NCBI GenBank assembly: GCA_963924565.1
Contig: OZ004607.1
Location: 5,456,001 to 5,520,000 of the forward strand
Direction: 5' to 3'
DNA: 64,000 nucleotides
DNA from: Ascidiella aspersa
Taxonomy: Eukaryota
The notes below the pieces were generated by a model, which saw nothing but the letters and a program-made list of their open reading frames with translations, was not told where the DNA came from and ran no database searches. A program made the translations under genes and the position numbers. Shown here in pieces: positions 1-42,256 of the stretch. Each line of letters opens with the position of its first letter. The stretch's first letter is position 1.

Positions 1-505
1 TAAAATGTCACGAAAAATTAAAAAATGACACCTCAATATTGCCTGAGCAGATCGTAAAAATAGTCTCACTAATGAGCACTATTATAAAGCTGATGTGTTA
101 TTGTTGAATTTGTTGAGGTTTGCCAAACTTTGAGTAAACTGTTCCAGCCCGAACCGAGTTAAACGAGCATTAAGATTTAAAAAAATAAACACAAACTTGA
201 TCAAAATGATCTGCTAACCAATAAGGAATGAAACACCAATAACGCATTTCCTAAAATAAATGTTAAAAAACTCAAATAATTTGTTGAGTAAAATAATTTG
301 TTGAGTGACAGCGGTGCTTTCCAAAGTGTGTTCAGCAATACGCAAGTTTGCCTGAATAAATTTTTTTTTGAAGTGAGACCCGAACCGTTTTCTATGTATT
401 TTAGGAAAATGAACCGTTCGTGTTTTTTAAGGTACGTAAGTTGAAATGCGAGGCCAGAATGACCAGTAACCTTTGGAAAACTTATCATTTCGGTATTTAC
501 GGATT

Positions 506-681
506 TGGAGGATTGTAGTAAGACGCAATAAGAATGTCGAAGCCAATACAGAAGTAGGTATCATATTGAACATTTCGAAAAACTCTTTATTCATTTTCAA
601 CATAGTCTGACTATGAATGAAGAGTTAATCGAAATCAAAATGATACCTACAACTGTATAGGCTTTGGTATTCTTATAACGT
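506..681. mobile_element. Fold-back repeat family A copy (diverged)
   Basis: Same arm sequence as 18858-19061 in both orientations. Confidence 0.75.
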
Positions 682-2089
682 ATTTACATATTGGTTTGTC
701 AGCTGCGGTTTGTAACAGGCGTATGTCAAACTTTGGTGATACTGTTTTTGTGAACACATATGTGCCTGTCCCTCTTTAATTCAGGTACTTTATATTTCAG
801 GTTTTATTTGATAACATACCGTAAGCAAAGCAGTTTGAGTCAGAAATAACACTGACGCTCATTTGGTTTCACATTCTGTATAAAGACTCATCCTAGTTCA
901 AATTCCCACAATGTATACACGACACACGTATAAGTGTTGATATCCGACTAAACTTAAATAATTTTTGGCCTTTTTTTTTCTTCTTCTGTTTTTTTTTCTG
1001 TTATTTTCTAGTATACAAACGTATATGTTTATCAGGAGTCGCCCTGCGGTTTCATTTAGCCGAGGCGATCAATGGCGTACCGGGCAAGTTTTTCAACGAA
1101 ATTGTGCGCCATAAATCCGATTCGTGTAATTGAGTTTTCATCGATCGCCGACCTTGGATTTGACGGAGCAGCGATTTGCGGCATATCGTGTCGTGCGTGT
1201 ATTTAGCCGCGCACACTACCCGCGTTTTGGAAAGGTAAATTTGAGAAGGCGGGATTATTAATAGTTTTGACAAATTTGTGTTTGACAAACGCGTTTTGCT
1301 GAAAAAAATAAAATGGTTTTATGTGATGGAAAGAAAAACATCCTATAATACAATCAAACAGTTTATACCACAATCAAGAAAATTGAAAAAACAGGAAATT
1401 TTTTTAGGGTTAAAAATATTCTGTTATTACCTCCAAAACGCGGGGCAAATTTTTCGTTTGAAATGCAGCAATTTTGTTCAAACGGATAACTGTCGTCTGC
1501 GAAAGTCCCTTAAGGTAAATCCGCGTGGATGGAAATTATTTTATTTCACCTGAAAAAATAGGAGACGTAACTCGTCGCCAACGCAGCCTATTCCGACTCG
1601 CCAAGCCCTTATTTTGACTTGGCCGTTACGCTCGGCCAAAGTTTTCCGGGGTTCTTCGGGCGTTTCGTTTATTCGACTTACCCGCGCCTTTCTTTCGACC
1701 CACAAAGCATTTTATTTCGCCTTCTTGTGTGTATTTGAAAAGGTGCGGCAGCCCTACGAAACGCCGTGTTCGCCTAAAGTGTTTTGTTTTTCGCAGAGCT
1801 AGGAAAATACGTTGCCAGGGCGAGTGGAAGTTAGTTTGTTTATCGTTTTCCTTAGCAACGTTTATTTTATTGCAGTGTTGTTATTAAACAATTAGGCTCT
1901 GATAAGTAACAAAAATATTTTAGATTTTATAAGTTTAAATTCCAACTATATGTATAAATGTAACGAAGGTATCTACTATGGTTTTAGCAAGATTTCGATC
2001 TACCACTGATTAAGTTGCGTCAAACAAATAGAAAAAAGTGTTCCTGTCCCTCGCCCGGTGATATTCAGTTATTGCCGCCGTGTTATTTC

Positions 2090-2336
2090 TAATGCTCAGG
2101 GGTGCCACGAGATATTTTAAAATCTTTAGGAATTTTTCTGGCTAATATTGCGAAGCCTTTTCCCTTTTGTGTACTCCTACATACATGAGTTTATTTCTAT
2201 TGTTCCAGTTTCGTTTATTTATAGTAAACCACTTGACATTATTGTGAGTTACACAACGAAAATTCTAGTAGGGGTTCCGAAATCTATTTATGTTTTCTTT
2301 GGGGTGCCACAAGCCATGAAAGGTCGCGAACTACTG
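2090..2336. mobile_element. Diverged family-B-related MITE remnant
   Basis: GGGTGCCACGAGATATTTTAAAATCTTTAGG...GGGTGCCACAAGCC...GGTCGCGAACTACTG. Confidence 0.6.
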
Positions 2337-2399
2337 GTTTACTGAATGAATATACTGTTGCTGCCAGGCATTGTGTCAACAGTAAAATAGTACTCCCGG

Positions 2400-2512
2400 C
2401 CAATTTTTTTCGACCACTTATTCGGGCAATTGCAACTATAGGCGAAGTAATATATATATATATAATATTGGCCTTAAAAAGATTGTCCGAATAGGCGGTC
2501 GAAAAGTTGGTC
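2400..2512. mobile_element. Family F fold-back copy (short, diverged)
   Basis: TTCGACCACTTATTCGGGCAAT ... ATTGTCCGAATAGGCGGTCGAA flanking a (TA)n spacer. Confidence 0.7.
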
Positions 2513-4219
2513 ATTTATTTATGTTTAATGTTGTAAATCCGAATCGGCCTATTACTTCACTACAAAAGGATCGCTTTTGTCGGTTGCAGGCAGTTTATGT
2601 AAGCTAGAAGAATTTTTGCCGCCAGATGCGAGCACATATATGACGCCTTACGCCGCTGCTACGATCTTGACTTGCGGTGGAGGCCGTTGACTGCTTGTTT
2701 GTAGCTACTTTCCAAACTGTTAGGTCGGCTGTCAGCTCTTTGTGTGTGTCGGCAGCAGCGGAGGCGGTCTCGCCTTGTTCTCTGTATATTTTCCTTGCCC
2801 GTTCTAATCCGCACAGGAGAAGCGCCAGGCCGATCGCAGCCTTGCGAAAGTCGCTTATCTCTGATTGGTGGACGCGAGATGCGGGCGATTCTGTCGTCAC
2901 GACGCCGTGACGTGTCAAAGTGCCCACCTCGCCCATCTTGATTCCTCCTGCCAGCCCAACGCCGCACGTTTGTTGCCGTTGCAAAAGTAAAAACGTGTCA
3001 ATCAATAAGTTAATTAGATGATCGCAATGCCGACGTCGCCCTTCAGGTGAGATATGCGGAAAATTTAAAGTCGCATTTTTACGCACCGTCAGACCGGTAG
3101 ACCCCTTGATGGAAATAACAAAATATAGACGAATTTGTGCTGGCGCCCTCTTGCGCGACCAGTTTGGAAACTGTTTTTTGGCGGTATCACACGGCTTTGA
3201 CGAAGATACGGTTCTCTGCTTCAATTTAGATTTACGTGATGTAAAAAAGGATAAAAACTGTGCTTTATATTTCTTTGTGCAGGCGATCGAAAGTGATGTG
3301 TTTGAAAGAGCTTTATATTAGACAAAAAACGGTCCATTCTGCTTTGAAGGCGCGATTCCTCGTTTAATGAGGATACTGTGATTTATGGATACACCAACTG
3401 CGTTGTTTTCAAATTAGGTAATCGCATAGCGTTGTTTTAACGAGAGAGTCATTTTCTTTATACAGAGAAAAATTGCTGTTTGTACATAAGGTATTCGGCA
3501 ACGTTTCTGTCTCCAAATTGCGATCGATTACGCTGATTGCTGGCAGCAAAATTGCCGGAGAGCTCACAAAAGCAATCTCAGTTTCCGCGTTTTACCTCAG
3601 TCGCATATTTCGCGCGAATTTCGTCGAACACGAGACGAAAGACAAAAAGCGCTACGCCGTAAAAAATGGCCGACGCCGAACTTTAATTCTCTTTGCGTGT
3701 TATTTTACCTCTATTTGTCTACACTCGGGCGCTTCGCGGACCACCCGGCCCCGTATAAATAATCGCGGCGCCCGCTTCGAGCATCAAAAAAAACGTACAC
3801 AAGTACGAAAAGACCTTGCAAAATTTGCGCGCCGCCTTGTAATCCAAAAGAGACAGGGGCAAACATATTAGCGATAATTTTACAGCCATTTTGCCAGGAC
3901 CCGGGCGTTTATTTTGGATCAGGTGCCATCAAAGCGCGCGTCGGCGCCGCAATTTGTTGCCACTCCGCCACGCCGGATCGCCCGCCTGTCAGGGCTTTAT
4001 GGTCAGTCCTGTTGCGTCAACGCGAACCTTCAGAGGCCACACAGCGAGTCCCCACGACGCTATCGCTGCATCTCGGCCTCTCTCCTGACCTGTTTACGCG
4101 TGCGGCGAACGTTGCGCGTCCTTCGAGAAAAATACTGACGATTTTTTGCCTCTGCAGCCTCTCTTGCCGCAGGACTAAAGAATAGCCGCTGTGTGCCTTG
4201 CTCGCAAGTTACTTTATAT

Positions 4220-4830
4220 CGGGTGAAGCCAACTTATGTTTGATTGCGATCGGCTGAAATTTTGAGACCCCGGTCGGTAAAAAAGTCACAAAAACACTTG
4301 TTGATCATTTTAAGCGTTAATTGCATTTCCCGGCGATGGAGGTTAACTTATTACGTCAGTGCTTCTCAACCTATGGGTCGCGACTTAAAATTGGGTCGCT
4401 GTTTGATTTGGTTGGGTCGCCGACCGCAGTAGTTACATGTTTATGCTAATTGAGATTGGTTCTGAGAAAGATTTCTCAATTTAGAAAATTAAGGAAGCAA
4501 TACAAATAATGTCTAATTATTAAAATTCGAAATTCTTTATGCTAATGCCTATTTTTTGTTCGCTTACAATGAATTGTTTTTTATTTCCCTTACAAGAAAA
4601 ACAATTGGGTCGCCAAGCTTATCGTCATAATTGCGCTTAATATTTGGGCCGCCGCGAAAAAAGGTTGAGAAGCACTGTGTTACGTCAAAGAGCGCTTTTT
4701 CAGGCTTGTCCAGGCAACAATTGGTCATTTTAACGTTCCGCTTGTGTGCGACAGCTACTGTAATGACGTAACACACATTCGACGCGATCGACCAGGTGAA
4801 GTGTGGCGATCGACGTGTTGGCTACCCCTA
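4220..4830. mobile_element. hAT MITE family E copy (reverse orientation) interrupted by a family D insertion
   Basis: 4220-4356 and 4678-4830 join into the reverse complement of 52872-53161. Confidence 0.88.
4357..4677. mobile_element. hAT MITE family D nested in family E
   Basis: Perfect 16-bp TIR CAGTGCTTCTCAACCT / AGGTTGAGAAGCACTG; TSD TATTACGT / TGTTACGT; GGGTCGC subterminal repeats. Confidence 0.92.
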
Positions 4831-5672
4831 ATTTTTTTGAAAAGAGTTAACGGTACGGCATTGTCTGGGCGGCAAGAAACGCAATTAGACCGCGATGTAA
4901 ACCCATACATTGGTTTTAGTCCGGGACCTAATGCTCAAGTCATCGGTCGATTTCTGCTAAAATTGGCGATGTACCTAATGCTCAATTGTGCATTTTAAAA
5001 TATTATAATTCCAATTAAAAACGTCTCAAAAAAACAATATTTCGTCAAAACATTTCCACGCCTCGAAGTTGTCGCATGCGCGTCTCAAATGTGTACATGC
5101 GGATATCCGAATGCACGTTGCACCGAGCGGGAATCGAATTCGAGACCCTAGAATCGCTACCCTGGCAAACTGTTGAACGTTAAACCACATAATTAATCGG
5201 TCCGGCCCGCCGAAAAATGTCGCTTTCGTTTTGGGAGTTAAAATCCATTTGCAACGCGCAGGTTAGCGCCCAACAGTTGATTGTTTTTACCTGAGTTCGC
5301 CTGACATTTAAAGCTTTCGCGAGCGCGTAGCTCACTGGGCATCAAAGCGCTGACAGCGGCTAAGTGCAAAAGACATTGTTGTTGTTACTACTCATGCGTT
5401 GTAGAAAGCGGTGGTTCAGCTGTCCTACGAAACCCAGTCGTGCTTGGCCCCATTTTGCTGTCGTATGTCCCACTCGCGACCCCGCTTGTTCTCGCTACGT
5501 CACGCGGTGTGTTGTTTGCAAACAGCGCGCTTGGGAAATGCCTCGCGTCGCCGTCCATTATCGCAAGCTCGCGCGCACTTGCGGCTAAGTTTAGGGGAAG
5601 TGCGCCGCGTATAGGGAAAGGCAAGGGACACAGCCCTGGGCGCGAGTATTCCGTCCCCAAATCGCGATCACT

Positions 5673-5689
5673 TGACCTTCAAGTGACCC
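5673..5689 (-). promoter_or_regulatory. Consensus DR5 nuclear-receptor element (RARE-like)
   Basis: Minus strand GGGTCA-CTTGA-AGGTCA; motif match only. Confidence 0.4.
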
Positions 5690-7002
5690 TGCCGCGGTGC
5701 CTCCACGTGTTTGTCTAGCGACCGTCGTCAAGTGGCGGGAAAGTTGTTCTTTGCCACCCACCGCCTCCTCCCCATCAGAATCCTACGCCGGCGAATGAAG
5801 TTAGTTTTGCTCGGCTGCCACGTCGAGTGCGATGCCCAGTCAAACTTGCCCGTCACCGTGTACACAGCGATCAAATTGAATGACGTCCAACGCAAAATAA
5901 AGCGAGACGCCTAAGTTGCCTTGTGTACAGTACAGGTGCTGGTAGTGGTGGCAGCGGTGGCCTGTGACTGTTTTTCTGACTCAGCGCCGCGTTTTCAAGT
6001 AAAGAGTCTGTCACGCCTTGCCGGGATTTCCACAAAATGCCCGCTCGATGATTTGATGTTGAAAAAATTGATATTCGCCCATTGTGCTTTCGTGTAAATA
6101 CACTATTGATCATTTCGTTTACACGCGTTAATGAGAGGAGCGCGAATTTGATGTGTGCCTTATGGGAATGACTAGTCGATTTGCCATGCCCACCCCGTTG
6201 ATGACAAGTGGGATCTTTATATGTGTGCGTTTCCCGGAATGCGCTGGGAAACAAAGTGGATTAGTAAATACATATCGTGTTCACAAAGGCACTTTTTGTG
6301 CGAATATATCACTTCAAATTTGTCTTTCTGTCGAAGGTTGGACAAGTAAATAACGTCTAAAGAGATGACTCACCCAAAACGTAATTGTATATCTTACGCG
6401 GAAAAACGAATAAACTGCATTCACGTTTAACAATTCAACTTTCACTGATACTTGCCCTCGACAGATACAAGCCGTAATTGGAGCCAGCGGTCAACCAAAG
6501 TGAAGCAATTACTCTTTGTAGGCGCCTGGGAGACCAAACAGACCGACGGTAAACAACCACTTCGATTGTGTGTCCGATTCTAGGCTCACTGGAACGTCAA
6601 GAGCCACTTCCACATCGGGCCAAGCTTGCTTGGGCAGCGAAAACCTGGATAAGGCTCTTCCTAACAGGGAAATGACATTGCTGCCTCGGCCGATTGCTGG
6701 ATAACGTGGCTGTGGGTGCCGACGTCGAGTGCCTGAGTGCCATAGAAATGCTAAGTAGCTTCGGCACCCTCTTAACACCTTCTAGTGCTCCATTGACCTG
6801 CGCGTGATCTCGCGTCCAGTTGACTTGCTTTTGAGGGTCGACGGTCGAACGGACTAGGCCCTTGTGCTGTGCGGCTCTGGCCCTGGCCCATATATCGGAC
6901 TTAACTTGTTGTGTTTCGCGTGCTGGACAGTTTTGTCCGATTTATGGCGCTTTTGCCATGACTCTCGGAATCTATTTCAATGAATATGCCGTCCCAGGCC
7001 TT

Positions 7003-7383
7003 GTTGCAATTGTAAAATTGTTCTTCCGGCAAATTTTTTTATCGAAATTGATGTATAATGACTTTAGTATTAATATTGAAATAGATTCAATTTTAAAACT
7101 GTTCTTTCACCAAGATTTTATCAAAGTACCAACGTTTCGACCACCTATTCGGGTAATCTTCTGCGGGGCAACATAATTGCTACTATAGGCGAAATATATA
7201 TATATACTAGACAAACAATAAGGGAAAAACAACAACTTCGCCTTTAGTTGCAATTATATTTCCCTGAATAAGATTGCCCGAATAGGTGGTAGAAACGTTG
7301 ATACTTTAATAAAATTTTTTAAAAGAACAGTTTTACAATTGAATCGATTTCAATATTAATACTAAAGCCAATATATTCGATAA
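7003..7383. mobile_element. Fold-back repeat family F (arms ~7040-7193 and ~7237-7383)
   Basis: AAAGTACCAACGTTTCGACCACCTATTCGGGTAATCTT and its reverse complement; related copies at 2400-2512 and 18641-18810. Confidence 0.8.
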
Positions 7384-7409
7384 CATCGTCTTGCCAAAAA
7401 AAGTTTGAG

Positions 7410-7792
7410 GATTTTATCGAATATAATGGTTTTAGTGTTTTTATTGAAATTACTATAAAACCTTGTATTGCGTTGCAAGAAAGTTAATTTTCCGTAGACC
7501 ATCTTTATTCCTTGGATGCAATACACGAGTTTATTAGTGATTTTGATAAAAATATTAAGCCATTATATTTGATGAAATCGACGTTTCGTTGTTCACAAAC
7601 GGTTTAGCAATAAGTCATGCCATCATCAGTGTAAAAAAATAAAAGTGAAGATAAAATGTTACCGTTTTTATCTTCGCTTGTGTTTTCACACTGAATATGG
7701 CATGAGGTATTCCCATAATGTTTGTAAACAACGAAGTGTCGATTTTATCGAATATAATGGCTGTAATATTTTTATTGAAATCATATTAACTC
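7410..7792. repeat. Chained palindromic repeat (A-A'-B-B'-A), family G
   Basis: GATTTTATCGAATATAATGG at ~7411 and 7741 with an inverted copy at ~7560-7579; inner inverted pair ~7580-7656 / ~7666-7740. Confidence 0.75.
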
Positions 7793-8020
7793 CCATCCAA
7801 AAATTGCACAGAAGTCAGCTAAAGCTCCTAAACCGGGAGCCGAACGTTTGTAATAAACGATTGCCAGAACACAAACAGAACATCCACCTTCGGGTTGGAA
7901 ACGTTTACGGCCCCATAAGATAAATCTTAGCTGTATTTTTTTCTCTTGGTTTAGCGCGTTACGTACATACGCCTTTCATAGAGAGCTCTAAACCCCGTTG
8001 CGATACTGTATAGAATAGAC

Positions 8021-8336
8021 CAGTGGTTCTCAACCCGGGATGCCGCGGCACTCAGGGTGCCATTTTTACTGTTTAAGGGTGGAGAGAGATATTTCGAATT
8101 CTTTTGGATTCTAAACTTTGCTCTATTAGTAAGCTTCTTGATACAATTTTTTTATATACGATAAAAGTGCAAAAAATTGAAAAGGTTTTATCAACCTTGT
8201 TGCACATCTGCTGTTTCAATCTCGTTTATTGTAACGTTACAGTTAACCACTCAGCAAAAATACGAGCAAGGGTGCCGCTTGGTATTTATAATTTCTGTAT
8301 AGGGTGCCGCAAGCCAAAAAAGGTTGCGAAACACTG
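8021..8336. mobile_element. hAT (Buster/Charlie-like) MITE family B, full length
   Basis: TIRs CAGTGGTTCTCAACC / GGTTGCGAAACACTG; perfect 8-bp TSD GAATAGAC (8013-8020, 8337-8344); subterminal GGGTGCC repeats. Confidence 0.92.
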
Positions 8337-8703
8337 GAATAGACGGTCTCGTATGGTTTTGAAGTGGCCACGTATGCGAGTGGTGGTGTATGTAATCTCA
8401 AACACACGCGTCACAACGATGAACAGATGCGATTTGAACGCGGCCAATCGGCTGGATTATGCACTTGAGCAACGCGAGACGAATCGCTTATTGCGGGTTG
8501 GAAAGTGAAAAGCGGCCTTGGGGTATTATCGCCGTTCTGTCGACTTGAAGCATCTTGTCCTTGCTTCTTAGCGCTGAGGCTGGCAGATGCCGACCTTGCC
8601 TAAGTCGCCTGAGAACAAATTGTGAGTTCGTTTGTCGAAGGGCGTAAGCAGCCCGATTTGGGCTCACAATCGATCAGCAATAAACGATTAACATTTGTCA
8701 AAT

Positions 8704-8910
8704 ACGCAGTAAGAATATCAAAGCCCATACAGAACCATGAGGCATCATTTTGAACGTTTCGAATAACTTTTTATTTATTTTTATTTTTTTTTAAGAGGTA
8801 ATTTTTTATGTTATAAAATAAGTAAAGAGATATTCGAAACGTTTAAAATGATACTTCTGTTTAGGCGTGGAAATTGCTACTACGTCTTACTATAACCTTT
8901 AACAATTATG
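8704..8910. mobile_element. Fold-back repeat family A copy
   Basis: AAGAATATCAAAGCCCATACAGAA...GAACGTTTCGAATAAC plus an inverted arm ending TACGTCTTACTATAACC. Confidence 0.75.
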
Positions 8911-9211
8911 TTTTTTCACATTAACAAGTTATATTTTTTCGTGTCACCAAAATAAAAATTTTTTTTAGTCATAAAAATGTTGGAAAATGGTACGTAAAAA
9001 ATTGCTAAACAAAAATTATTCTGCTTAAAATTAATCAACATGTGCTTCCTCAAACAAATAAAATAAATGAAAAACAGCCCACTTTTTAATTTTTTTGCTG
9101 ATTAGTTTGAATCAATTTGATCTTTTTTTTGACGAACAAAGCCTTTTCACCAGTAATGCTTTTCAAAAAGAAATGCAAAGCAAAAAGGTCGAGTAGATCG
9201 ACGTCATCTCG

Positions 9212-9253
9212 ATTAAAACGTTTCGATACGAACTTGTATCATCTTCAGTTAAT
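9212..9253 (-). ncRNA. Minimal type-I hammerhead-ribozyme-like motif (solo copy)
   Basis: Minus strand AUUAA-CUGAAGA-U-GAUAC(AAGUUC)GUAUC-GAAA-CG-UU^UUAAU: 5-bp stem I, CUGANGA core, 5-bp stem II, GAAA, palindromic ACGU in place of stem III. Confidence 0.6.
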
Positions 9254-11765
9254 GTAACTGACATCTAAAACAAAGCATCACTTGTACGGACATTGCGGAA
9301 GTAGTTTAAATTATAGGCATCCTTGAAATGCTAATGTTGCGCCCGAAGGATTTTTTAAATACCAATATCCAGAAGCCTTCATTTCTTTTCGTTTCGTACA
9401 ACTTATCATCGCAAAAAGGGCCGCGTTTCGAAAGTGAAAATATGCAAATCAGTCCGCTGGCGAAAGGGTTTCCTGGAATAACGCACGATAAAAAAGTTTT
9501 CTCGCGCAATCGACTTTAAGAACAAATGAAATCGACATGTTCGAAGGAATTTTTTACATGTTTTTTAGAACAAATTTGCTTTCGTTCGTCTTATTTTCAA
9601 GTTTTTACCGCGACCATCGAATTCAATTTTTACCGTCACCACTTCCCAAGAACTTTGACTGGTATAGAAATCTAGATGTTTGCTTTGCAATCGAGAGTAA
9701 GATCTTGCGAAGTAAAAAGAGGCAGCCTCATGTTTTGTCACTAGCATTAATTTGTTTGCTCGCCTCACTTGCAATGAAATGGACCGAGCGATCGAACGTC
9801 GGTGTTTCCGCAGGCCCGGCTTATCGGGCCCTAATTTGATACGATTACGGGCCGTTTGCGGTCGAATCCACCGCCAGTGGGTCTGCAATCAACCACAGCA
9901 GTCCTGGAACACAGGCGCCGTGCGAAGCCATAACTGGCGTCGTGCAATTCGCATTGCTTCATACCTGGGCTACTGTCAGACTTTTTGCCTGGCGTGGGAC
10001 TCTGATTTTTGTGGCGGGATTCCAGACACTAAAAGCGACTCGCCCGACTGGTTTAAAGGTCAATTTTGGTTCGTTTTTGGAACGACGTTGACAAGATTGG
10101 CTACTCGCGTTTTTCTTATTAAAATAGAACAATCACTTTTCCTAAAATAGTTTTCATATGATTAATCTGATTTTGTGAGAAAAAAGTAAAAATAATTAAT
10201 TCAAAAGCAGAATAGGCTCTGCGAATGCTTATTTGAATTTTTTTTTTAATTCAGAAACCTTCCTAGTTTAATGTGAAATCATCACGTCAAAAAGACCGAG
10301 CTATGTGAACTGTTCATGCCAAAGAGAAAATTGTTTTTTTCGTTTTATTCTTCAACACTAACGTCTTAAATGAGAAGCATTTGTCCATTAAAGCGGAGAT
10401 TTCGATTTTAAATTTTTGGCCGAAGCTATGTTTTTGCTCTATCTTTAATGATTAACCCAAAGATATGGCGGCGTTGCACATACGCATTCAAAACCGTGTC
10501 ATGGGGTTTTACTACGGGCCCAAAAAACCGGGCATGACTAATAGGTGTACAATATAAATATAGATAAATCAGTTCGGCCAAAAGTCCCGTCTTACATTTG
10601 GGAAGATTAAACCAATTTTTTTGCCTATTTGAGGCAATGTCAACATACAAAACTTAAAGCTCAGTTCCGGTCACTACGATTAAGTTATTGCAAATACAAC
10701 AAGTCTTCTTTGTAATCACATATAGTCGCTGTTGATATGCTATATAGCTCGATAAATTGTATCTTTTATAACGTTTTAAGTTTTTAGAACAATCGCTAAT
10801 TTTGCTTTATGCTCTACAACAACCTTTCTATTTGTTGCATATGTGTTCCACGTATATACTCAAAAGTGCAAATGCTAATCGCAGTCGACCAGTTAACTAT
10901 CCCTGGCGTTTACATTTTGTTTTTAGATTTTTCCAACGTGTTTGCTTGGTGAGGGTCTGTACTATAGAGTTAAATAATAATAGGCTTCGTGTTTTCTGCG
11001 ACATATGAATTAAAACACTGTTTCCCAAGAGCAGCAAAATGTTTTTTATTGAAAGTTTAATAAATCAGTTTTAATTTAAATCACTGATTTTATTTAACAT
11101 CGGTATAAAACTGGTTTTAGCAGATTCTCACTGGGCGAAAAACTAAACTTTGGTAAAACAACGTTAAATTGTTGGAACACAATATACATTGGTTGTGCTT
11201 AAATAATAGTTTCTAAAAATTTTGGATCCGAAACGTTACGCAAAGTCAAGGAAGGCTTATTCAATCTCTTAATTTTTTAAATGTATTTATTCTCTTCTTT
11301 TAAGGTGATCGTTGAACGTAGCGTTCGTTCACAATAAGGAATATAAACTTTAACCAGCCCGGCACCAGCAATCTGCAAAAATCCTCGCCCTTGGTAGGTT
11401 CAGGCACCCACGTTAAGAGCAGAAAGGGACCTCTTTCGACACATCACTATACGGGCCGAACATTTTATCTTGTTTTATCTTGCCCGAAGCTTTATAGAAA
11501 ACGTATACATCGTAGAAAAGTCAGACATGACGTATAGAGTGGTATGTATTAGTGCGCTTAAGAGGTTTAGGAATCTGCCCCCCCTTCAGCCTTTTTAATT
11601 GGGGAACAAAAAACCTAAAAAAGTGTGACGTCACTATTTTAGTTCTTTATCGCTATCTACTCCTATATAGTCACGGCCAGTTGTAATTACGAAGGCGAAT
11701 ACACCGCACTGTATCTGCAGACTGCAAGGTGCATTTGTATTTTGTTTAGAGCATAGTGGCTAGAG

Positions 11766-12095
11766 CAGGGGTACTTGAACTGGGGTCCATTGACCCCTTG
11801 GGGGTCTAATTTTAGGGTGTCCAATAAAGCCAAATGGAAACATTAGTGTATATTTAAGAAGTAAGCAAATTTTGAAAAGAGTTTAGTTAAAAATAAAACG
11901 TTTTAGCACCGAATGTATTAAGACCTAAATCATCAGCGCTTTTTTTGAAGGCTATTTATATTGTAACATAGATTTATTGAAAAATCAGCATATATGTGAA
12001 GTCTATTTGATTGTGACGTCGATTTATGACGTCATTTTGGAAATTTCCTTGCGTACCGTGGTCTATGCGAAGCAAAAAAAACTTTAAAAAAAGTC
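11766..12095. mobile_element. hAT MITE family C copy, opposite orientation, far end decayed
   Basis: CAGGGGTACTTGAACTGGGGTCCATTGACCCCTTGGGGGTC is the reverse complement of the family C right end. Confidence 0.75.
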
Positions 12096-14797
12096 TATAC
12101 AGAAGTATAATAGGTCGACAGAGTTTATTCGTAGGCCCAGGTTAAGAGCGGCTATGCGACAGGGTGGGACCCTATCATCGCATATGTTTTTACTTTTGCT
12201 GGCATCGCACGCAGCCAGAAACGCCCGCGTTGTAAGCGTAATTAGAGCCAGCAGCGTTTAGTCAGGACACGAGCCGTCGCTTTCGGCCTGCGCTGGAAAT
12301 GTCACAGCGGCCTTCCGCCGCGCCAGCCTACCTGCTGATGAATTGAGGCTCCATCCGCTAGCGAAATTCGCCGAATGCAGCAGCCGTCACCTTTCGATGA
12401 AGCGGTATGCATTCGCTATAGTATGTGTGTGTGTGTAGTTGGTGCGTGCGTGCGGCGTGTGTGTATTGCCCTTGTGGGAGTAACGGGCTGTGCGATGCGA
12501 TGTGATGCGCCTGTAGTAAGGTCATTTGATTCCAGGTGTCAGATTAGGCGGCGTCAGCGTAGGGCTGCTGCTGCTCCTTGATGGGCTCGTCCCGTGTTGG
12601 GCGCACACGGCGAATTAGATACGCAGCTGTCCGTCGCGTTGATCTAATTTCGTTCTCAAAAGCCTAATCGAATCGGCGGAAAACACGAGTTTTTTTGGGC
12701 GTGTTTCGAGTTGTCCGTGTCGCGCTTGCAAATTGTTGCTTTCGGATTTAAAATGGCGGAACTTCATGCGATGCTATTTATCCACATGAGTTGTGATTGC
12801 CTTGAAGGTATGTTATTACTCAGCCGTGTCTTTACCGAAGTTAAGAAAAAGTATATTTTCGAGTTTACGTTAGGCAGCATTAATCTCTCCATATACATCA
12901 GTGGTTCTTTAACCTTTCAACTGGCGAAACGCATTGGCTGTTTTAACCGTTATGTTTTTTAAGACAAATAAAAACAACAAAATCACGGTTCAATAATTTC
13001 TGTACAAATCCGCACTCATCTATACCCTACACAAGAGCTAGGTTTTTTTTTTTTCAAAAAAGGGACGATGCGCTTCCGCTAGAACACTTATTTTTCTAAC
13101 AAATTAAAATCTGAGGTTAATCCAGCAGAACTACTGCTGCGAAGCCAAATAGTTTTTTTCTAAATCAACTGGTTCGCAAAGCAGATACAGTAAGCAAAGG
13201 TATACAAAACATTTAAGTCAATGACTATACGAAGCGTACAGTACTCTATAGCTCGCTTGACTTTAGTGCCGTTCTAAGGCTTTTGGAAAGCACGTGGAAC
13301 CAGAGTTGATTGATTTGGTGTCGATTGTTCTTTTCTCCAGCGCATAATCTTTTAGGTTTTCGGAAACCCTTGCGGTTTTGCCAGGTGACAAGACATCGAC
13401 ACCGAACTGATAAATAACAGCGAGCGCCCGCGCTGTCCAGCCTTTCTATTATGAGTGAAGAGCGGGAAAATTCCCGTTTCGGTGGAATGTAGTGGGCAGA
13501 AGTTGAAATTCCGCTCTCGATTCGGGAAATCATTATGGTTTGCAATCCAATTGACGGCGTTCCCACCCCAAACAGAGAGTTTATAAAAGTTTCGTACTTG
13601 GTTAATATTACTAAGCTTCCAATTTCCTAAAAAAAGCGATTGCTTAATTTCAATGAATCTTTGTGATGATAACAATAAGTGAGCCAACGGCAATTGCAAG
13701 CTTTTTTAATAGGTCTAGACTTTCGAAGTTATAGTCCACTACTAAATTGCTGGGATTTGCCGAAGGTATTGTGTGAAGTGTATAAGCAAAAGATTTGCAA
13801 TTGTTGGACAAGCTCACAATTAAAACGTCATATGTGCAACGATATAATGAGCGTTAGCAACGAACAGATACCGTCTGCTGCAAAAAGCTTCACGTTTACC
13901 AGAATTCAAGTATTTGTATTGAGCATGAGCTCACTGTGTTTCACACCTGACTTAAGGTCTTTTTAGGCCCCTCAGGATGAAGTTTGTTTATTTTTTGGTT
14001 TAACAGTTGCTTATTTGTGCGTGGCAAACAAAACGTACTTAGTTTCATTTCGCTCACAGCTTTCTTTACTAAAGCGCCCGCGAGCCCAGGTACCCTGCCT
14101 TGGCGGCGCACCTATAAGCGATTGCAGCAATTCCACAAAGCGTCCCTTCCTGAATGCGTCGTCCTTACAACGGTCCCACGAACGCAGTGCAGTTATAGAG
14201 AGAGTCAGGTGCCGTGGAAACGTCAATCTAGACGAAACCTAGTACCGGAAGACCGAAATAGCGATTCAGAGGTTCCCGTGAAAACACGATGCTGCGTCTA
14301 AGGCCGAGAGGTCGCCCCGAGGTGCCCAGCCCATCAAGAGACGCCCAGAAGGGAAAGGGGAACAAAGCTTCCTTCGCTGACTGTCAGTCCTGATTGGCGT
14401 TTTTTAGCTGCTTGTTTTTTTTTGCGCATAATTGCAACCTTCGCAGATGGGAAGTGCGTGTGCAATGCCCGGTCGCTCTGGTAGCTCTTTTGATTTTTAC
14501 CTGCAGTCCGCCAAGTGCCTAATTTATTGTTTTTAGCCCTTTGGTTTCGGCGCGTATTGGGACGTGTCTTTCGTGGTAGTAATTTCTCATCGCATCGCGC
14601 AATGTGCAGCCAAGACATTGTGGTCGTTACCCTTTACTGCTGTTAAAATCCCAAAATCTAGTTTAATTACGACCTTTTTCGTTACGTTTAGTGGCCAATG
14701 CCCTACAAGTGTTCATTACCTGGCAGTGACCAAATGCTGGCGAGTTGACGACTATACGTGGGTTGAAGAATTGGCCCAAAAACAAGAAATCGGTGCA

Positions 14798-15073
14798 AAA
14801 AAAGTTTGTCACTTGTTGACTGCCACTTGTTAAAAAAGTTTGTCACTTGTTGACTTACTTGAAGTCTTTTGGTCATGTGGCGTGCGTTATTTGTTATTTA
14901 AATTATTGCTCATATATTCGGACAGGTTTACCAGTTTTAATAGTTTAAAGTTTTTTAAGGACTTGACTTGAAGTTGACTTAATTATGACTTGACTGGGAC
15001 TTGACTTGTTATTTTGTCGAAAATACTTTTGTCGAAGACTTAAGTTGTTTCAAAATGACTTGTTTACAATACT
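14798..15073. repeat. GACTT-rich repeat tract with a 24-bp direct duplication; possible DNA-transposon end
   Basis: AAAAAAGTTTGTCACTTGTTGACT at 14798 and 14832; many GACTT(G) units at 14960-15062. Confidence 0.6.
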
Positions 15074-16457
15074 GCTACATGGTTGTGATAACTCTGTGTG
15101 CTATGTTATCGTTTTTGAAGTCCAGTTTGTATAAATTTTGTCTGCCATACCTCGGGTGCGTTATTTGCTAGATTTTGTCGAAAAACACCTTTTGGAAAAA
15201 CGTTGTCTGGGCTGCAACTTTCGCAAAGGTACGCGATTTCGTCAAGATGTACCCTCGGGAAAGTTAACAAGCACCTGTAGAGATTCGAGAACGGGTTTAT
15301 AGCCTATATATACATATATATATAGGGTCGATTGGCCAGATTGGCCTAATAAGAGTTTGGCACACATAGTGCAGGGTTTCAACTAAGCCTTTGAATCTTT
15401 GTCTTTGATTGTCTTTTTAAAGTCTGTGAGCAAGTCTGAAGTGAAATGCCAAATGTTGGCGGGTTTAAAACGTTTTTCCAACTCTTGCCTACAAACAACC
15501 GTCTAATGGAATCGCTTGACTAATGCCAATACAAGCACGGCGTGTAGATTGTCGCTTGTAAAAGCAGCGTAGCAGGGCAAGGACACGCCTCGTGCGTGCT
15601 CGATTGCCATTTTGTTTATTCCAGGGCGCTGCCGACTGTCACGACGGCGACATATTGTTCGCAGCCGCTCGAACCGCGCGGAACAAACGTTTCGTGGCGG
15701 AAAGCAGCAAGGAAAGCCGTACAATGGGCCTGGCAAACGGCACTTCTGTATTTCTCGATACGCAGAAGAGCTCGGCTCGTCAACACAGCGAGTATAGTTG
15801 GTTACACACGGGAGGGGGAAGTTTTATAAACGCGTGTGTATGGCCCGCTTTGGAGAAGGCAAGCTTTGAATTGATAATCCGCGCCAATCCCGGCTGGCAG
15901 AAGCTGTCAGACCGCTTCCCATCGCAATTCATTTTGTATAGACAGCATTGCTCCCCCCAACTGTGATTCCGTTTCGGTGGTTTGTATCGCGTTACTATAC
16001 TGTGCAGTTCGTGCCGCCGCCACCGCCTGACAGTGCTGCTGTTACTGCGGCGGGCTCGACAACACCATTCACTGTTTTGCCAAGGCACCGTTTCTCCGAA
16101 TCGCGACACCAGATAGACGCTTTTCGGCGTATGTTTTTCGAGACAGATGCCGGGGCCCGAAGACACTAGATTGGACGGTTGAACACGGTCGTTTGGAAAG
16201 CGGTTGACTCCCTTGTTTTAATCCAGGGATATGGCACGAAAACAAAATGCGAAACAGAAGTTCGACAAGGGATTGACAAAGACACGGGTGGGTGGTGTGG
16301 ACGCCAGCGGGGTAACATTCGAAGTGGCGTTAGTTTAAGTGGTCGAATATACTTTATCGTCAAATTGACTCAGATTTCGCCGCTATCGCCTTTCGTAAGC
16401 CTATCTTCTTGCGGTCCTGCTTTGAATGTCAACCTTATTTAACCAGAAAGCATTTCT

Positions 16458-16459
<2 letters not shown>

Positions 16460-16497
<38 letters not shown>
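16460..16497. repeat. (GT)19 microsatellite
   Basis: Read directly from the sequence. Confidence 0.98.
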
Positions 16498-16499
<2 letters not shown>

Positions 16500-16531
16500 G
16501 GGGAAAAGGGTTAAGGAGTAGTATGATGGCC

Positions 16532-16573
16532 TCAGCCCTGCCTGGACCCTTGTCAGCCCTGCCTGGACCCTTG
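16532..16573. repeat. Perfect 21-bp tandem duplication TCAGCCCTGCCTGGACCCTTG x2
   Basis: Read directly from the sequence. Confidence 0.95.
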
Positions 16574-18640
16574 GCTCACAAAAGAGAATCCTGTTTTCGA
16601 ACTTACGTTGGTACTCCTTATCACTTTTCACTTGTGCGGCCTGGAACCCCGAAAAAACTGCTTTCAAACACTTCATTGTTCCAAAAAGCTTTAAAGAGAG
16701 ACACTTTATTTGTTTCTTCACAAACTCCTGCCTAACTTCGGGAACAACTGGTTAATTTATAACTTAGGCCTTCAGAGGAGACCCACAAAGATCCCTGAAA
16801 CGTTTTTCACAGTTTTTACCCTCAGTGTGGGTTTGACCTACGGGCAAAATGAAGCCATCGTTTTTTTTTACATAAACCATTGCCGAGTTTTAGTTGATCA
16901 CGGCAGACGAGGACTTTCAATTTATTACAGCGGATTTTGAGTTTCAACCGATTAAAGCAGACGGGGACTTTCGATTGAAAACAGCAGATTAGAACTAATT
17001 TTTTGTCTAACTGGAATAGTCTGGTAGTCAAATCAAAATGATGCGCTTGTATATATCGCCGTACAACCAGAGTCGGTTCGCGTTTCGTCTCAGATTAAAG
17101 CAACAGCAACTGTGTCCAGTAGTACCACGTCGGTGCTAAGCAATTCGCGCCCTTCTAGTCAGTTAACTGCTCGTTGTTTGAGGGGGCAAGTAAGAACAGC
17201 AGCATCAGCAGCAGTAATAATCGTGCGGCTTACTGACAGCAGTTGCTTACGAAGTGCGATTGGTGGGGTCGTGATACCGACGGCAAACGCCACATTCAGT
17301 TTTGTTTCAGCAAGCGTCGAGCTACATGCCTAGTACACCCATATCGCCAGTGTGAAGTCTACGAGCGCAGTATCTGCCTTGCGAATAGTTAGTTGGGCAC
17401 ACAGAGCGTTCAGGCCAAATTTGCGTGTACAGAGTGCCGGCGTTTTAGAATTGGCAGGTTTTTACTTCGTCTTTTAAAACTTAATTGGGATAATCAGGCC
17501 CTATTTAGAATTAGACAAAAAAAGGCCTTTACAAAGATTGGTAAACTACAATTGCGTGCATAATGCAATTTCCAGAATATACCCAAATTACAAAAAAAGA
17601 AAGGGAAAGGAGGTACTTTACTACATAAAAGAAAGGAGTACTTACTACATAATTTTCCATCCATTTGTAAAAAGAAAAAGGTAACATAACTTGTAAAATC
17701 AAAACTGAATAAAATTGTTTTCGTGACTGTAGTTTTAAAGTGGGAAATAGGACTGAGAGGATCAATAGAGGACATTATTTTTTGGTCAATCGTTGTATAT
17801 TGGGTTATTGCAGTTTAAGCTATCTATGTTTTATCGATCAAGGCTTATAGGCAAACGATTTTAATACACAAAACCTTTCATTGTTATTTCACAAAAAAAC
17901 GTTGCAAACTTACTGTGCTTGTTTGGTGCGGATGGAAATTTTCCAAAATAAAAAAGTGCGGATGTAAATTTTAAAGGTTGAAAAGCACTGATACAGTGCA
18001 ACTTTATAACCCTTTCTTTGGTCAGTGAGTTTGGTGTTAAAGTTTGTTATAAATATCGTATTAGTGTAAGTACCTCGAACTATCGAATTATGTTTTGTCA
18101 GTTCTAGCGCTGCCTCGCGCCAGAATACTTGGGAATAGGGCAACTTAATATGCCTGTTTTGCCTGTTGACGTATCAGCTTGTGTTCCATGAACTAACTTT
18201 CTGTTGTGGCTAATACTAGAAGTGTTTGCGTCGGCTTTTGGTTTAGAATCAACGACTGTAAAATCAAAAAAATAGTTAAGTAGACCTTAGTTCAAAGCAG
18301 GTTAACTCCGAACTGTTAAAAACTGGTCTTTTTAATTTGCATATCTTGTAGGTAATATAACACCACTGTTTAGGTGTCTTAGTTACACAATTGTGTAATT
18401 AAAAAATGCCGACACTGCGCAATCCTGTCATATGCATGAATGGGTGATTCCCAACCGGGGTGCCATTTTTAGAGCTCAAGGGTGCCGTAATGTATTTCGG
18501 AATCTTTATGAATATGATATTTGCCCAACTCATAAGCCCTTTGATCCAACTCTCTATGTGCACTTATATACAATAAAATTAAATTTTAGTTTCTCCGCTT
18601 ATTTTGCTTTTTCAGTTCTATTTATATTGATATTACAGCA

Positions 18641-18810
18641 AACAATTGTAAAATTGTTCTTCCCACAAAATTGTACTAAAGTTCCAACGTTCCGACCACC
18701 TATTCGGGTATAGTTGCAATAATATTGCCCTAAAGAAGATTGCCCGAATAGGTGGTCGAAACGTTGGTACTTTAATCAATTTTTGCCGCAAGGACAATTT
18801 TACAATTGTT
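18641..18810. mobile_element. Family F fold-back copy
   Basis: AACAATTGTAAAATTGT...CGACCACCTATTCGGG / CCCGAATAGGTGGTCGAAACGTTGG...ACAATTTTACAATTGTT. Confidence 0.8.
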
Positions 18811-18857
18811 ACAATTGAAACAATGGCTGGCAGCAAAAACATATTCATTACTTTGTA

Positions 18858-19061
18858 GCATAATGGTTGGAGGTTGTAGTAAGACGTAATAAGAATATCA
18901 AAGCCCATACAGAAGTAGGTTGCATTTTGAACGTTTCGAATAACTCTTTATTCATTTTCAACATAGAGAGAAGTCACTGATGGTAAGTAAAATGAATAAA
19001 GAGTTATTCGAAACGTTCAAACTGATACCTACTTCTGTATGGGCTTTAATATTCTTATTAC
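18858..19061. mobile_element. Fold-back repeat family A, best copy; arms carry a hammerhead-like motif
   Basis: Inverted arms 18886-18958 and 18989-19061 (GTAATAAGAATATCAAAGCCCATACAGAAGTAGGT...GAACGTTTCGAATAACTCTTTATTCATTTT); about nine related copies in the window. Confidence 0.85.
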
Positions 19062-20042
19062 ATATTCATTACAATAAAGTAAACCAATCAACGGAAATTT
19101 GGGTGTGTTGCAATATATTTACTATTTCAGGGGATGCGTAAACTGCTACATGTTAGAAACCACTTATAGATAGGGAAAACGCAACAAATCGAATGGCATA
19201 AAATGGTTGTTCTATCAACTTTGCTTACTTTAAAACGGTTGGTTGCAAACCAGATGTTTTACTTTCTTTAGGACTTTTTCATGTCAGTTTAAAATATATT
19301 CATTACACCTTAGAGCAGGCTAACGACACTTCAGCGTTTGAAACATAATTTTGTCCCAAAATATTTGTTTTTGTTTGTCGCGTCCTGCAAATATCGTTGA
19401 AAACAAATGAAGAATTGGTTTTGGTAGTTTGAACCACCCCCAACCATACGACAACAATTGCTTCATTCACAAAACACAAACATTCAGCAAGTTCTCAAAT
19501 CGTTCTCGTAAACGCAGGCCAATGTTGTTGTTTTGCCTTCGAACGTCCGCACCCAGTAGTTTTACGCAGAAAGTTTGCCTTATAGTTAGCTGAAAATCAC
19601 AATCAAGGGTGCATTTTCTTATGGAAAGAATCGTAAATAGAAGCAAGGTGCCTCGTTTTCAATATAAGTCTAACTGTTATAGCGGTTTTCCTGTCAAATA
19701 TTGAGCTGTTTTAGACATGGCAAGGTGTCAAATCATTGTGGAGTTTGGAGTGTGTAGGACTGGTAGATAAATCTATACCAGGGCTTTGCAAGTTGACATA
19801 GGCCTATTTTTACTTGGCTTGATTACAAAACGTTCAATGAAATATGGACCGTGTCGCTGTTTAATGGACCAAGGGGGCCGTATATTTCGTACGTCATTAA
19901 ATGACGTGATGGTCGATCATCGTATGTTGACAAATGCTCGGTTATGGACCAAAAAACGTTAAGGCACGCATGAACAGCATCCCTTTACGTACGCAGTGAA
20001 CATTACGCAGTCTAATTAGGCCTAGTTCATTCACACATACAA

Positions 20043-20356
20043 CGATAGTTCTCAGCCGGGGTTCCGCGTCAATACTCTAGGGTGCCATTTTCAACGCTTA
20101 AGGGTGCCGAGAGATATTTTAAATGATTAAGGATTCCAATTTTTGTTCTACTGGTAAGCTTCTTAAAACAATTTTTGTGTACGATAAATGTGCAAAAAAT
20201 TAAAAGCAACCTTGTTGCGCAGTTAATGTACCGTTTCAATCTCGTTTATAGTAAACGCTACAGTTAACCAATCAGCAAAAATACGAGCAAGGGTGCCGCG
20301 AACTACTTATAATTTCTATAGGGTGCCGTAAGCCAAAATAGGGTTGCGAAACACTG
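20043..20356. mobile_element. hAT MITE family B copy
   Basis: Collinear similarity to 8021-8336; right end GGTTGCGAAACACTG; left TIR degenerate. Confidence 0.85.
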
Positions 20357-21776
20357 CTCTATACAACGCCAAAACAGTTGCTTGTACGGGTTACTTTTAA
20401 AGTTCACGCAAAGCAGAGTTTACATGGCGACAATGGAAAGGTTTGGAAAGGGCGACTTTTGCCAAACAACTGCTCGACGAGCGGCGGTAAGCGGTAATTA
20501 TCGTGCCGCGAAATGTGGAGTGGACAGTGGCCGCAGTGGGCTGCCCTGTCCGGCGCAACGCTGCAGGTCGTAAAAGTGAGCTTTCAATTCGTCGATTGCC
20601 CTCTCCGAACGTCGCTGATGAGGTCAGAGACCGGTCAAACCCCGTCGCCGTTGCGTAACAATGCCGACGATTGTGATGTCATACGAGGCGACGCTTCACT
20701 TGGCAGCGCTCCCACCCCCCGGTGCGGGGGAGTTTCTTCATAGCGGCCGAATGCATGTAATCGTGCGGATTGGCGAAACGCTTGGGAAAATGAGTAAATA
20801 ATGACTTGTAAAAAACAGAAAGGTTTCGCGTATTAGGCAGTTCGCTACATTGCACAGCGAAGGAAATGTCAGAGTTCGAGCGTATTTTTTTTCAGGTTCT
20901 GCAAATTCCTGACAAATAAAGTAGAGAAGGCAAACTTAAAGAGGCAGTCATCGCTCAGATAAATATCGATTTCTGATGGTGGCAGTTTAGGCGTTTTGTG
21001 CATCTATCGGTATTAGGCGCTTAACTTCACGGAAACTACTTGAAACAATGAAGCCTTACTAAGACGAGTCATGTCGAAATGGCAGTTTTGTTGCGAAAAG
21101 TGAATCGAAACCAGAAAACAATTGCTTTGCGACTTTTAAACAGTCGCTTCATAAAATAAATAATGGCGGGTTTCCTCTTTTCGTTTAGTGGGATATTGTC
21201 AGTCGTTATGGCAGGGAATCGCTTTAATCATTACTCAAGACTATGTTCACTGTAGAACCTATCTCGACGAGATTTGAGTTACCAGTTTTAGCACATTAAT
21301 AGTATCAAAACAGACTGCGAAGTGACAGTATTTAGCTAGAAGAAAGTTGTTTATTTGGAGGATTTCACTAAAAAGTGTGCGTATTGTTGCGTCTTTGCAA
21401 GCAAATAGATTTATATTTCTAGTATGGATGACAAAATCGGCTTTATTATATTAGCTCTTAAGAATGTTAATATCGCCCTAGCATTGCAATGAAATTTGTT
21501 TTTAAACATAAAACGAGAGAAAATGGTCGCCAGTTTTGATTTTTGACAGCGATTTCCATGATCGCTGTTAGGCAGCTTTACCAGAACCGCAGTCAATCGT
21601 AGTTCATTGAAATATGCGACCGAATGTGCATGTAAAAAATCAGCTGGCCGACTCGCAAAAAAAGACGCCGATTGCCTGATTTGCCGTGGCAAGTTCCTAA
21701 AATCACATTGTATTAGGCTGAATGGTTGTTATTGTTTAGCAAAGCGAACGGCTTACCTTGCATGTACTCATTAAAT

Positions 21777-22084
21777 TAGTGGTTCTCAACCAGCACTCTG
21801 GGATGTCAATTTTTAACGCTCAAGGGTGCCGAGATATATTTTAAATTCTTTACGATTCCATTTGTTGCTTTACAGGTAAGCTTCTTAATACACTTTTTTG
21901 TATACGATAAAAGAGCCAAAAAATAATTAGTTTTTTTTTACTTATTGCTCAGTTAATGAGTTGTTTCAATCTATTTTATTGTAATGTTACAGATATCCAC
22001 TCAGCAAAAATACGAGCAAGGTTGCCGCGAACTTTTTACAATTTATGTAGAGTGCCGCAAGTTAAAAAGGGTTGGGAAGCACTG
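21777..22084. mobile_element. hAT MITE family B copy
   Basis: TAGTGGTTCTCAACC...GGTTGGGAAGCACTG; decayed TSD CATTAAAT/CAATGAAT. Confidence 0.85.
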
Positions 22085-23536: not shown

Positions 23537-23864
23537 CAGGGGTTCGTCCTAAACCGGTTGTTCTTCCTTAATTTTGTTCTTGACTTTTTTCTTAGCGGAC
23601 CCCAATTTTTTTGCTTCGCATGAATCAGGGTAGGCAAAACGTCATAAATTCACGTCACACTATAAAATTACTTCATTCTGCTGTTTTCGGTCCAAAAATG
23701 TGAAAGTTCAGTGCACAAACGTTTTATTTTTAATTAAAAACTTTTGTTTGAAAAATTGATTACTTTTAAAATAAACCCTAATGTTTGAATTAAACCCTCA
23801 TGGACCCCCTAATATGGGCTTTCGTACCCGCAAGCTGCCATGCATCCCATTTTAAGAACCCCTA
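23537..23864. mobile_element. hAT MITE family C copy (diverged)
   Basis: CAGGGGTTC...GGTCCAAAAATGTGAAAGT...CATGGACCCCCTAA...TTTAAGAACCCCTA. Confidence 0.8.
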
Positions 23865-24234
23865 AACAAAAAATGGTCCCCTTCGCCGAAACAGCCATGA
23901 CGTCATAACTGCAGGACGCTCGCACCCCTCCCCCCTTCTGTTTGGGTCGTGACTCGTCGAAATGTCGACCCCGTGTGGTAGCTCCGGTGTATACGCTGCA
24001 AAAATACGTGTGAAATATGTGAGGGTTTGTTGTGAGCCAAACTTCGTCACGACTTTGCTTTAAATGTGTGTTCAGTGCAGAGCTTGGCGTTAGCAGCAGA
24101 GTTGCAAAGGGAAACAAAACAGTCGCCCATGTAAGGTTTATCGAACTTTTATCTATTTTGACAATGTGTTTTCAAAATCACAGTTACCAAAATGCTGCCA
24201 AACCCAACTGTGCTTGCGCATCAATAGTCACAGT

Positions 24235-24313
24235 CGTAATAAGAATACCAAAGCCCATACAGAAGTAGGTAGCATTTTGAACGTTTCGAAAAACTCTTTA
24301 TACATTTTCAACA
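24235..24313. mobile_element. Family A single arm
   Basis: Near-identical to 18885-18963. Confidence 0.8.
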
Positions 24314-41847: not shown

Positions 41848-41989
41848 GCACCCGCTTTTTCCTTTACTGGCGCTCGTGTTCGAAAAGTGCGAGCTTGCCA
41901 CGTGCACACCACGTGACCCCGGCGTTACCGGAAGTGACGTATGCTCGTCGGACTCGTTCAACGACGACATCGCGTGTTTCGCCAAGCAG
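41848..41989 (+). CDS. Meis: Meis exon 3, MEIS-A/HM1 ([47 protein letters not shown])
   Basis: Near identity to the Meis/hth HM domain; cacgcAG acceptor in phase 2, CAG|GTAACT donor; 142 nt. Confidence 0.98.
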
Positions 41990-42037
41990 GTAACTTTCCT
42001 TGAAAATTTCGTGTAAAGAATTAACTTGTGTTTAAAC

Positions 42038-42240: not shown

Positions 42241-42256
42241 ATTTGTATAACAATGT

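Follow-up and report, generated by a model that had tools for sequence, protein, structure and literature searches.

A type I minimal hammerhead motif in Ascidiella aspersa, very probably an inert passenger of a truncated Penelope-like element

Minimal hammerheads in the pseudo-LTRs of Penelope-like elements (PLEs) were described in 2014 by Cervera and De la Pena (PMC4209133), and pseudo-LTR ribozymes of this kind are an already known class. That paper reports for them a nucleotide that separates position 9 from 10.1, a G10.1-C11.1 pair, a palindromic 15.2-16.2 and a U3-A8 core variant, together with solo and opposite-strand copies and a low activity even as dimers; double-hammerhead pairing is treated in a review (PMC6765202). 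It has also been reported, by Frangieh et al. 2024 (PMC11167929), that in PAc, the Poseidon element of Anolis carolinensis, the ORF starts at stem II and the cut falls 26 nt after its AUG, that RT starts 111-118 nt into the ORF in vitro, and that the hammerhead cut only with protein present, cutting being dispensable for insertion. Here we compare with these systems a motif on the minus strand of a 64,000-nt stretch of DNA, which was analyzed as a whole and is referred to as the window. We consider it very probable that this motif is the minimal hammerhead of a PLE pseudo-LTR within a truncated insertion of ~120 bp, a likely inactive and neutrally decaying passenger that is most likely inert; the stub that carries it is ordinary mobile DNA.

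A position-by-position assignment of core and stems, combined with a descriptor search, identified a type I minimal hammerhead (the PLE minimal form) at 9212..9253. Reading the minus strand from 9253 to 9212, stem I is a perfect 5-bp pairing of AUUAA (9253-9249) with UUAAU (9216-9212), the core CUGAAGA occupies 9248-9242 from C3 to A9, an unpaired U is inserted at 9241 between A9 and G10.1, and stem II is a perfect 5-bp pairing of GAUAC (9240-9236) with GUAUC (9229-9225) around AAGUUC, after which follow GAAA from G12 to A15.1 (9224-9221), the palindromic CG (9220-9219), U16.1 (9218) and H17, a U at this locus (9217). The hammerhead core is present throughout, namely C3-U4-G5-A6-N7-G8-A9, G12-A13-A14, A15.1-U16.1 and H17. 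Stem III is reduced to one A-U pair around CG and fails to close within one molecule, as expected for the dimer-type hammerhead subclass. An earlier sequence-only reading of this DNA had proposed that the core is complete, that stems I and II are perfect helices of 5 bp and that the cut falls between 9217 and 9216. Our assignment bears out the core and stems and places the cut identically (H17 = 9217); we also agree with it that stem III cannot close as a monomer and that the ACGU palindrome would permit a two-molecule double hammerhead. Its layout stands, with the exception that it overlooked the unpaired U between A9 and G10.1, a hallmark of PLE minimal hammerheads.

The marks of that class found at the locus are the U at 9241, the G 9240-C 9225 pair (G10.1-C11.1) and the palindromic ACGU at 9221-9218. 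Together with its sister families, the motif matches the PLE minimal hammerheads of PMC4209133 in the inserted nucleotide, the G10.1-C11.1 pair, the palindrome, the solo and inverted copies and the U3-A8 variant, and it shares the 2-nt palindromic insert with the variants given there for Drosophila, rotifer, shrimp and mosquito, whereas stem II has 5 bp here and 7-8 bp in the Schistosoma motifs of the same source. It also departs from its own family, which has C17, by carrying U17. By its sequence, the motif is a genuine type I minimal hammerhead motif.

The motif lies within a 5'-truncated solo fragment of a PLE 3' end (9171..9286, minus strand, ~120 bp) comprising the pseudo-LTR and the first ORF codons, which was delimited by matches elsewhere in the genome, by alignment to five copies and by longer copies continuing into EN and RT. 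The copy begins in the decayed TATA box of the pseudo-LTR, a putative promoter element (9281..9286, minus strand) that reads TACAAG here and TATAAG in the family, the T of column 53 being present in 19/20 copies and replaced by C in the window copy. The commonest start of family copies, possibly the transcription start of the parent element, is an A that corresponds to 9255 (minus strand) and stands 31 nt downstream of TATAA and 7 nt ahead of C3; the window copy extends past it. Beyond the hammerhead lies a remnant of the ORF start (9171..9207, minus strand), which in the family translates as MMSIYSTFLAL... and is homologous there to the N-terminal ends of two intact sister ORFs, and in which one base is missing from the window copy (a gap at column 156). 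The stub ends at ~9171 (~9165 in the listed matches), with a weakly matching tail possibly reaching ~9150, and in the alignment to five copies the 3' boundary of the insertion is too decayed to place. Its neighbor at 8701..8910 belongs to another PLE family that has the U3-A8 core variant; this stub is arranged head-to-head, and both of its cores are decayed.

Searching the 308.6-Mb genome with a 301-base query yielded 1994 first-look candidates; among the matches listed, only the segment from window position 9286 to ~9165 was covered, at 73-94% identity and often in head-to-head pairs, and query positions 115-230 matched 59 other listed places at 83-94%. A 21-nt anchor located 3' of the motif, and outside it, has 946 exact matches in the genome, and the stub family is a repeat of at least 946 copies, about a thousand. 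A copy-number search for homologues that keep the core, which the earlier reading had named as a check on itself, found them in abundance, with 155 exact copies of the family 38-mer (C17) and 6 of the 35-mer with U17, the window copy included; H17 is C in 79/88 family copies. The description of the motif as solo holds locally, no same-family copy lying in the window, and fails for the genome, where the motif is far from rare and hundreds of homologues keep the core. For the copy comparison, the flank anchor, which lies beyond the motif, was used to collect 96 copies among the 100 matches listed first, all on one contig (C1), with duplicated loci included and one copy dropped for aligning to a neighbor. 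The sampled copies were mostly short, about 100-130 bp, and solo or inverted, and they display the PLE-like traits of 5' truncation, inverted upstream copies and an optional 3' tail, partial tandems being seen in sister families only (L034, L036-L038).

Other repeats share the window. The second PLE family, with the U3-A8 core, accounts for 15 window matches, mostly head-to-head stubs, which fall within 505-684, 8701-8910, 18850-19074, 24232-24313, 42247-42400, 44270-44530, 49877-49913 and 57805-57968, and several weak Rfam miRNA matches coincide with hairpins of this family. Over 139 nt, its copy at 18988-18850 (minus strand) shares 96% identity with an intact element; the core of this copy is retained, and this sister motif at 18961 (minus strand) renders arguable the earlier ranking of the focal motif as the best candidate for activity in the window. 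A further family, MITE-like or PLE-like, contributes long, nested inverted repeats at 7007-7783 and 18641-18810, with arms of 65-85 nt. A dispersed ~300-bp repeat family, 66-81% alike, is found at 8016-8340, 20048-20357, 21793-22088 and 42033-42244, and a further one of the same size and similarity at 11761-12092, 23576-23863, 25320-25676, 37262-37601, 38912-39223 and 52216-52404.

Longer copies of the focal family lead into coding sequence. In L015, a frame of 119 aa that ends ~90 nt before C3 contains VVY-CxC-YIG and, further along, the H/E/N residues of a PLE GIY-YIG endonuclease, and an identical motif lies ~90 nt past the EN stop in L015, L025, L032, L045 and others, with the ORF N-terminus next to it. 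L031 extends into RT (RVT_1, E 1e-7), which is 51-56% identical to an intact 848-aa sister ORF in a partial tandem. With the EN motifs seen in L015/L032, the plan of RT plus C-terminal GIY-YIG EN with a CCHH motif is present in the family, though not in the window stub. A Pfam search of the isolated EN frame found nothing, the only Pfam GIY-YIG match came from the sister L036, below cut-off, and the intact sister ORF had no match at E<=0.01 when searched by sequence against the PDB. Since none of the 150 scored out of 631 candidates contained a full open ORF of the focal family, its parent was assembled from several broken copies. Frames adjoining or hosting family copies include L040:1428-3347 (640 aa), L045:5129-6136 (336 aa) and L031:4485-5201 (239 aa), which we take to be transposase-, LINE- and integrase-like, respectively.

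Two sister families with 43-56% protein identity have intact 843-848-aa ORFs in partial tandems, and both look recently active from their sequences. Their hammerheads have the same layout and place with other stems (GGCAA/UUGCC; GAAUAA/UUAUUC), so that the differently paired stems constitute a between-family covariation, and one of the two has the U3-A8 core swap. All three families have an AUG made up of A9, the inserted U and G10.1 (L034:4739, L036:3885, L015:1539). The near-identical PLE copies of these sister families, with their intact 843-848-aa ORFs, occur in partial or triple tandems at L034:2226-4769, L035:2260-4899, L036:3873-6401, L037:4125-6653 and in L038.

Set against PAc (PMC11167929), the focal family likewise has an AUG where stem II begins, with the predicted cut 26 nt later (A9 at 9242, cut after 9217), its insertions end at the 3' side about 110 nt into the ORF, and there are few signs of cut RNA having served as template. 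The common 3' end of the family, ~107 nt past A9 (21/96 at the last column scored), fits the PAc RT start 111-118 nt into the ORF. Unlike in PAc, the stem II AUG of the focal family opens a frame of only 9 codons, and a second AUG, immediately beyond the cut site, starts the shared N-terminus, whereas in both sister families (L034 and L036) it is in frame with the ORF. In comparison with the C-terminal EN+ PLEs covered by Craig et al. 2021 (PMC8557442), the cysteines of the focal family are spaced CxC. A linker zinc finger (CX2-5CxxC) is absent from columns 640-760 of alignment A2, which by the definition in that source places the family outside Neptune/Nematis and leaves it with the Penelope/Poseidon plan; judged by its domains, the family appears closest to Penelope/Poseidon.

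This relationship to coding elements bears on whether the motif could be a coincidence. Across both strands of the 64-kb window it is the sole hammerhead-like match with C3-G8, and matches appeared in 0/300 dinucleotide shuffles under a strict descriptor and in 2/300 under a looser one. An Rfam search of the window found no hammerhead family at E<=10, which does not count as evidence against the motif because the dimer type lacks stem III; the isolated 42-mer folds stem II only (z -0.08), and the folding z-scores of 42, 66 and 111 nt are all near zero. One could suppose a chance match to the hammerhead consensus in the arm of a MITE-like inverted repeat, for which the frequent inverted pairs, the missing Rfam match and a folding energy no better than that of shuffles might speak. 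We regard this as vanishingly improbable, given the strict shuffles, the recurrence of the layout in two sister families whose paired stems differ, and inverted arms that have varied inner ends and connect to an RT/EN ORF; the between-family covariation and the link to the ORF refute it.

A second alternative treats the repeat as a SINE-like unit or non-autonomous retrozyme that spreads as tandem hammerhead monomers, in keeping with the shortness of most copies and with the derivation of retrozymes from PLE pseudo-LTRs given in a preprint (bioRxiv 10.64898/2026.07.22.740005). The focal motif resembles the non-LTR retrozymes of that source in its type I hammerhead and PLE ancestry and differs from them in that tandem monomers are absent and the unit is the truncated end of a coding element. 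The locus has no tandem array, the copies stand alone or head-to-head and differ in their 5' ends, the long ones continue into EN and RT, and only 5/95 have their start at the cut site or right before it, the expected start of a cleaved monomer, all of which makes a retrozyme extremely unlikely here and leaves truncated PLE insertions as the preferred account of these copies.

The 5' ends of the copies are not spread evenly. In the focal family, 29/59 copies that reach the 5' edge of the motif stop in one 7-nt window, as compared with 3-18% in other windows, and the peak itself (12/94) is the A corresponding to 9255, which follows a C. In the U3-A8 family, whose anchor has 2403 matches, 47/60 copies reaching core position +2 stop at -6 to 0, and 19/96 start at an A 3 nt before U3, 30-32 nt after TATATATA; these ends were scored on the stubs L171-L260 against L036:3736-4010, some loci being duplicates. 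In the same family, a non-reference G stands just before the junction at 13/19 peak starts versus 13/51 other junctions (p=0.002, some duplicate loci included), and in 66 copies fetched after the pattern had been seen the counts were 7/10 versus 8/40. The focal family has no such excess of junction G (3/12), and the pile-up of the L034 family is weak (5/30 at -12 to -6). The RNA run X3 gave 50 reads on intact L034, none of them over the ORF body and with no pile-up of starts or ends.

An extra G is reported as a mark of the copied cap in full-length L1 insertions (PMC11702581). TATA and initiator motifs are noted for rotifer Penelope pseudo-LTRs (PMC3846280), and a TATA-less promoter and an intron for Drosophila Penelope (PMC2377424). 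The 5' pile-up ~31 nt past TATA, together with the extra G of the sister family, suggests run-off from capped, uncut RNA. A 3' splice site may instead cause the focal pile-up, and a pyrimidine-CAG is indeed present there; the peak nevertheless falls 2 nt past the CAG, and no shared upstream exon was found in 40 upstream flanks. Returning to run-off, we propose tentatively, while leaning slightly against it, that the thousands of solo stubs would be run-off cDNAs for which RT would prime at whichever internal start site is closest to the 5' end of the element's own transcript, capped and uncut, and extend back as far as the cap. On this view, the hammerhead would be placed in the mRNA's first 3-10 nt and overlap its first AUG; cutting there would take off the cap together with the leader and act as a protein-triggered off switch of translation. 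The window copy is not of the run-off type. A thin literature search found no earlier description of a 5'-end pile-up with an untemplated G.

We then examined how far the motif has been maintained. Over 53 full-span copies, the 11 core positions are off-majority in 43/583 cells (7.4%), the 3' flank in 42/1007 (4.2%) and stem II in 36/530, and the higher rate of change in the core relative to the flank indicates that the core is not preserved after insertion. Among 295 stem II cells, 16 are broken, 9 are kept by a one-sided change and 1 is compensatory. The faster decay of the core (p=0.008) was considered as a sign of selection against the ribozyme and rejected as such, the copies being non-independent, the CpG sites differing and alignment ends biasing the flank columns. 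Of the copies covering the motif, 17/59 (29%), the window copy included, are intact by the features on which the earlier reading had relied, 15 of them with GUC. In divergence the window copy ranks 32 of 59, the median, and is presumably of median age. Its U17 is not clearly harmful, since GUU is a listed cleavable triplet in PMC3138052 and U17 is found in 5/5 hammerheads of the intact sister elements L034/L035.

Dimer partners and transcripts were sought as well. The 64 kb contain no same-family copy that could serve as a partner in cis, and the anchor matches that come next on C1 lie at distances of 136 kb and 269 kb. The stub at 8701-8910 was rejected as a partner on account of its different stem I and its two decayed cores. 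According to nearest-neighbor energies calculated without tertiary contacts, the double hammerhead of the window copy is predicted at -6.9 kcal/mol versus -18.7 for a dimer in which the GAAA core is base-paired, and that of the family form at -6.9 versus -14.8 kcal/mol for another dimer. RNA run X3 placed 816 reads on 1-20000, 814 of which fit only partly and hence derive from repeats elsewhere; in this one run (tissue unspecified, about 6/100 of the reads examined), there were no unique reads at the locus or within 20 kb, depth was zero over the unique flank 9339-10005, neither starts nor ends piled up, and no read ended at the predicted cut.

The earlier reading had located the motif upstream of Meis, which is loosely correct, with proximity as the sole link. 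The Meis_PKNOX_N exons found lie at 41846-41995 and 47676-47747 on the plus strand, the first of them 32.6 kb from the motif. Pfam gave no match in 150/150 stop-free frames of at least 62 aa starting from 204 to 30267, and over 300/329 such frames (up to 59 kb), a screen that short exons would escape, the sole match was Meis_PKNOX_N at 47628-47882. A second Meis_PKNOX_N gene is located at G000:C6:15145270-15146619; the window exon scores higher, and the window paralogue is Meis or PKNOX/Prep. The motif is likely unrelated to the Meis gene.

These data also bear on a third alternative, in which the window copy has been preserved as a functional ribozyme or regulatory element that serves a local transcript, for instance an enhancer or antisense RNA lying far upstream of Meis, and cuts in trans together with RNA of other family copies. 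The window copy has changed at 1/41 scored motif positions versus 8/64 outside (Fisher p=0.09), a weak hint of local conservation at a locus that was chosen for intactness; the insertion is also present in a second DNA sample, in which a contig over 9235-10348 contains its 5' half plus flank, and hundreds of genomic copies could provide trans partners. Against this stand the equally intact 29% of covering copies, the lack of unique X3 reads within 20 kb in the one run, the distance and opposite strand of the Meis exons, and predicted energies that, tertiary contacts aside, favor other dimers for the window copy and the family form alike. We therefore judge a kept ribozyme very unlikely and retain the decaying insertion as the better description of the window copy. 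The earlier presentation of the motif as notable, locus-specific or probably active likewise finds no support, considering the neutral decay, the missing partner in the window, the X3 result and the behavior of published members, whose cutting is weak even in dimeric form or depends on the protein of the element.

The history of the copy may be outlined as follows. The element's protein would have nicked AT-rich DNA, by analogy with PAc in vitro; reverse transcription would have begun inside the RNA, ~80-115 nt past the hammerhead AUG, and the cDNA of the window copy would have ended early at the pseudo-LTR TATA box. In a tandem transcript of the parent, ACGU pairing would join two pseudo-LTR hammerheads as a double hammerhead, with cutting after position 17, a reaction that, judging from the literature, would be slow and probably take place only with the element's protein bound. 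Given the lack of a cis partner, the damaged TATA box and the lack of any sign of transcription, the window copy most likely never cuts in vivo, and as a dimer it might cut weakly in the test tube.

The locus in itself matters little, as a single passenger, among about a thousand, of a known retrotransposon ribozyme, and it carries the warning that in this genome an intact hammerhead near a developmental gene is to be expected by chance. If the 5' ends of copies do mark the start of capped RNA, the promoter of a PLE would be locatable from genome sequence alone. The same reading, if true, would account for the abundance of solo hammerheads in animal genomes and lend in vivo support to the test-tube finding of uncut RNA as template, and the purpose of PLE hammerheads would become directly testable.
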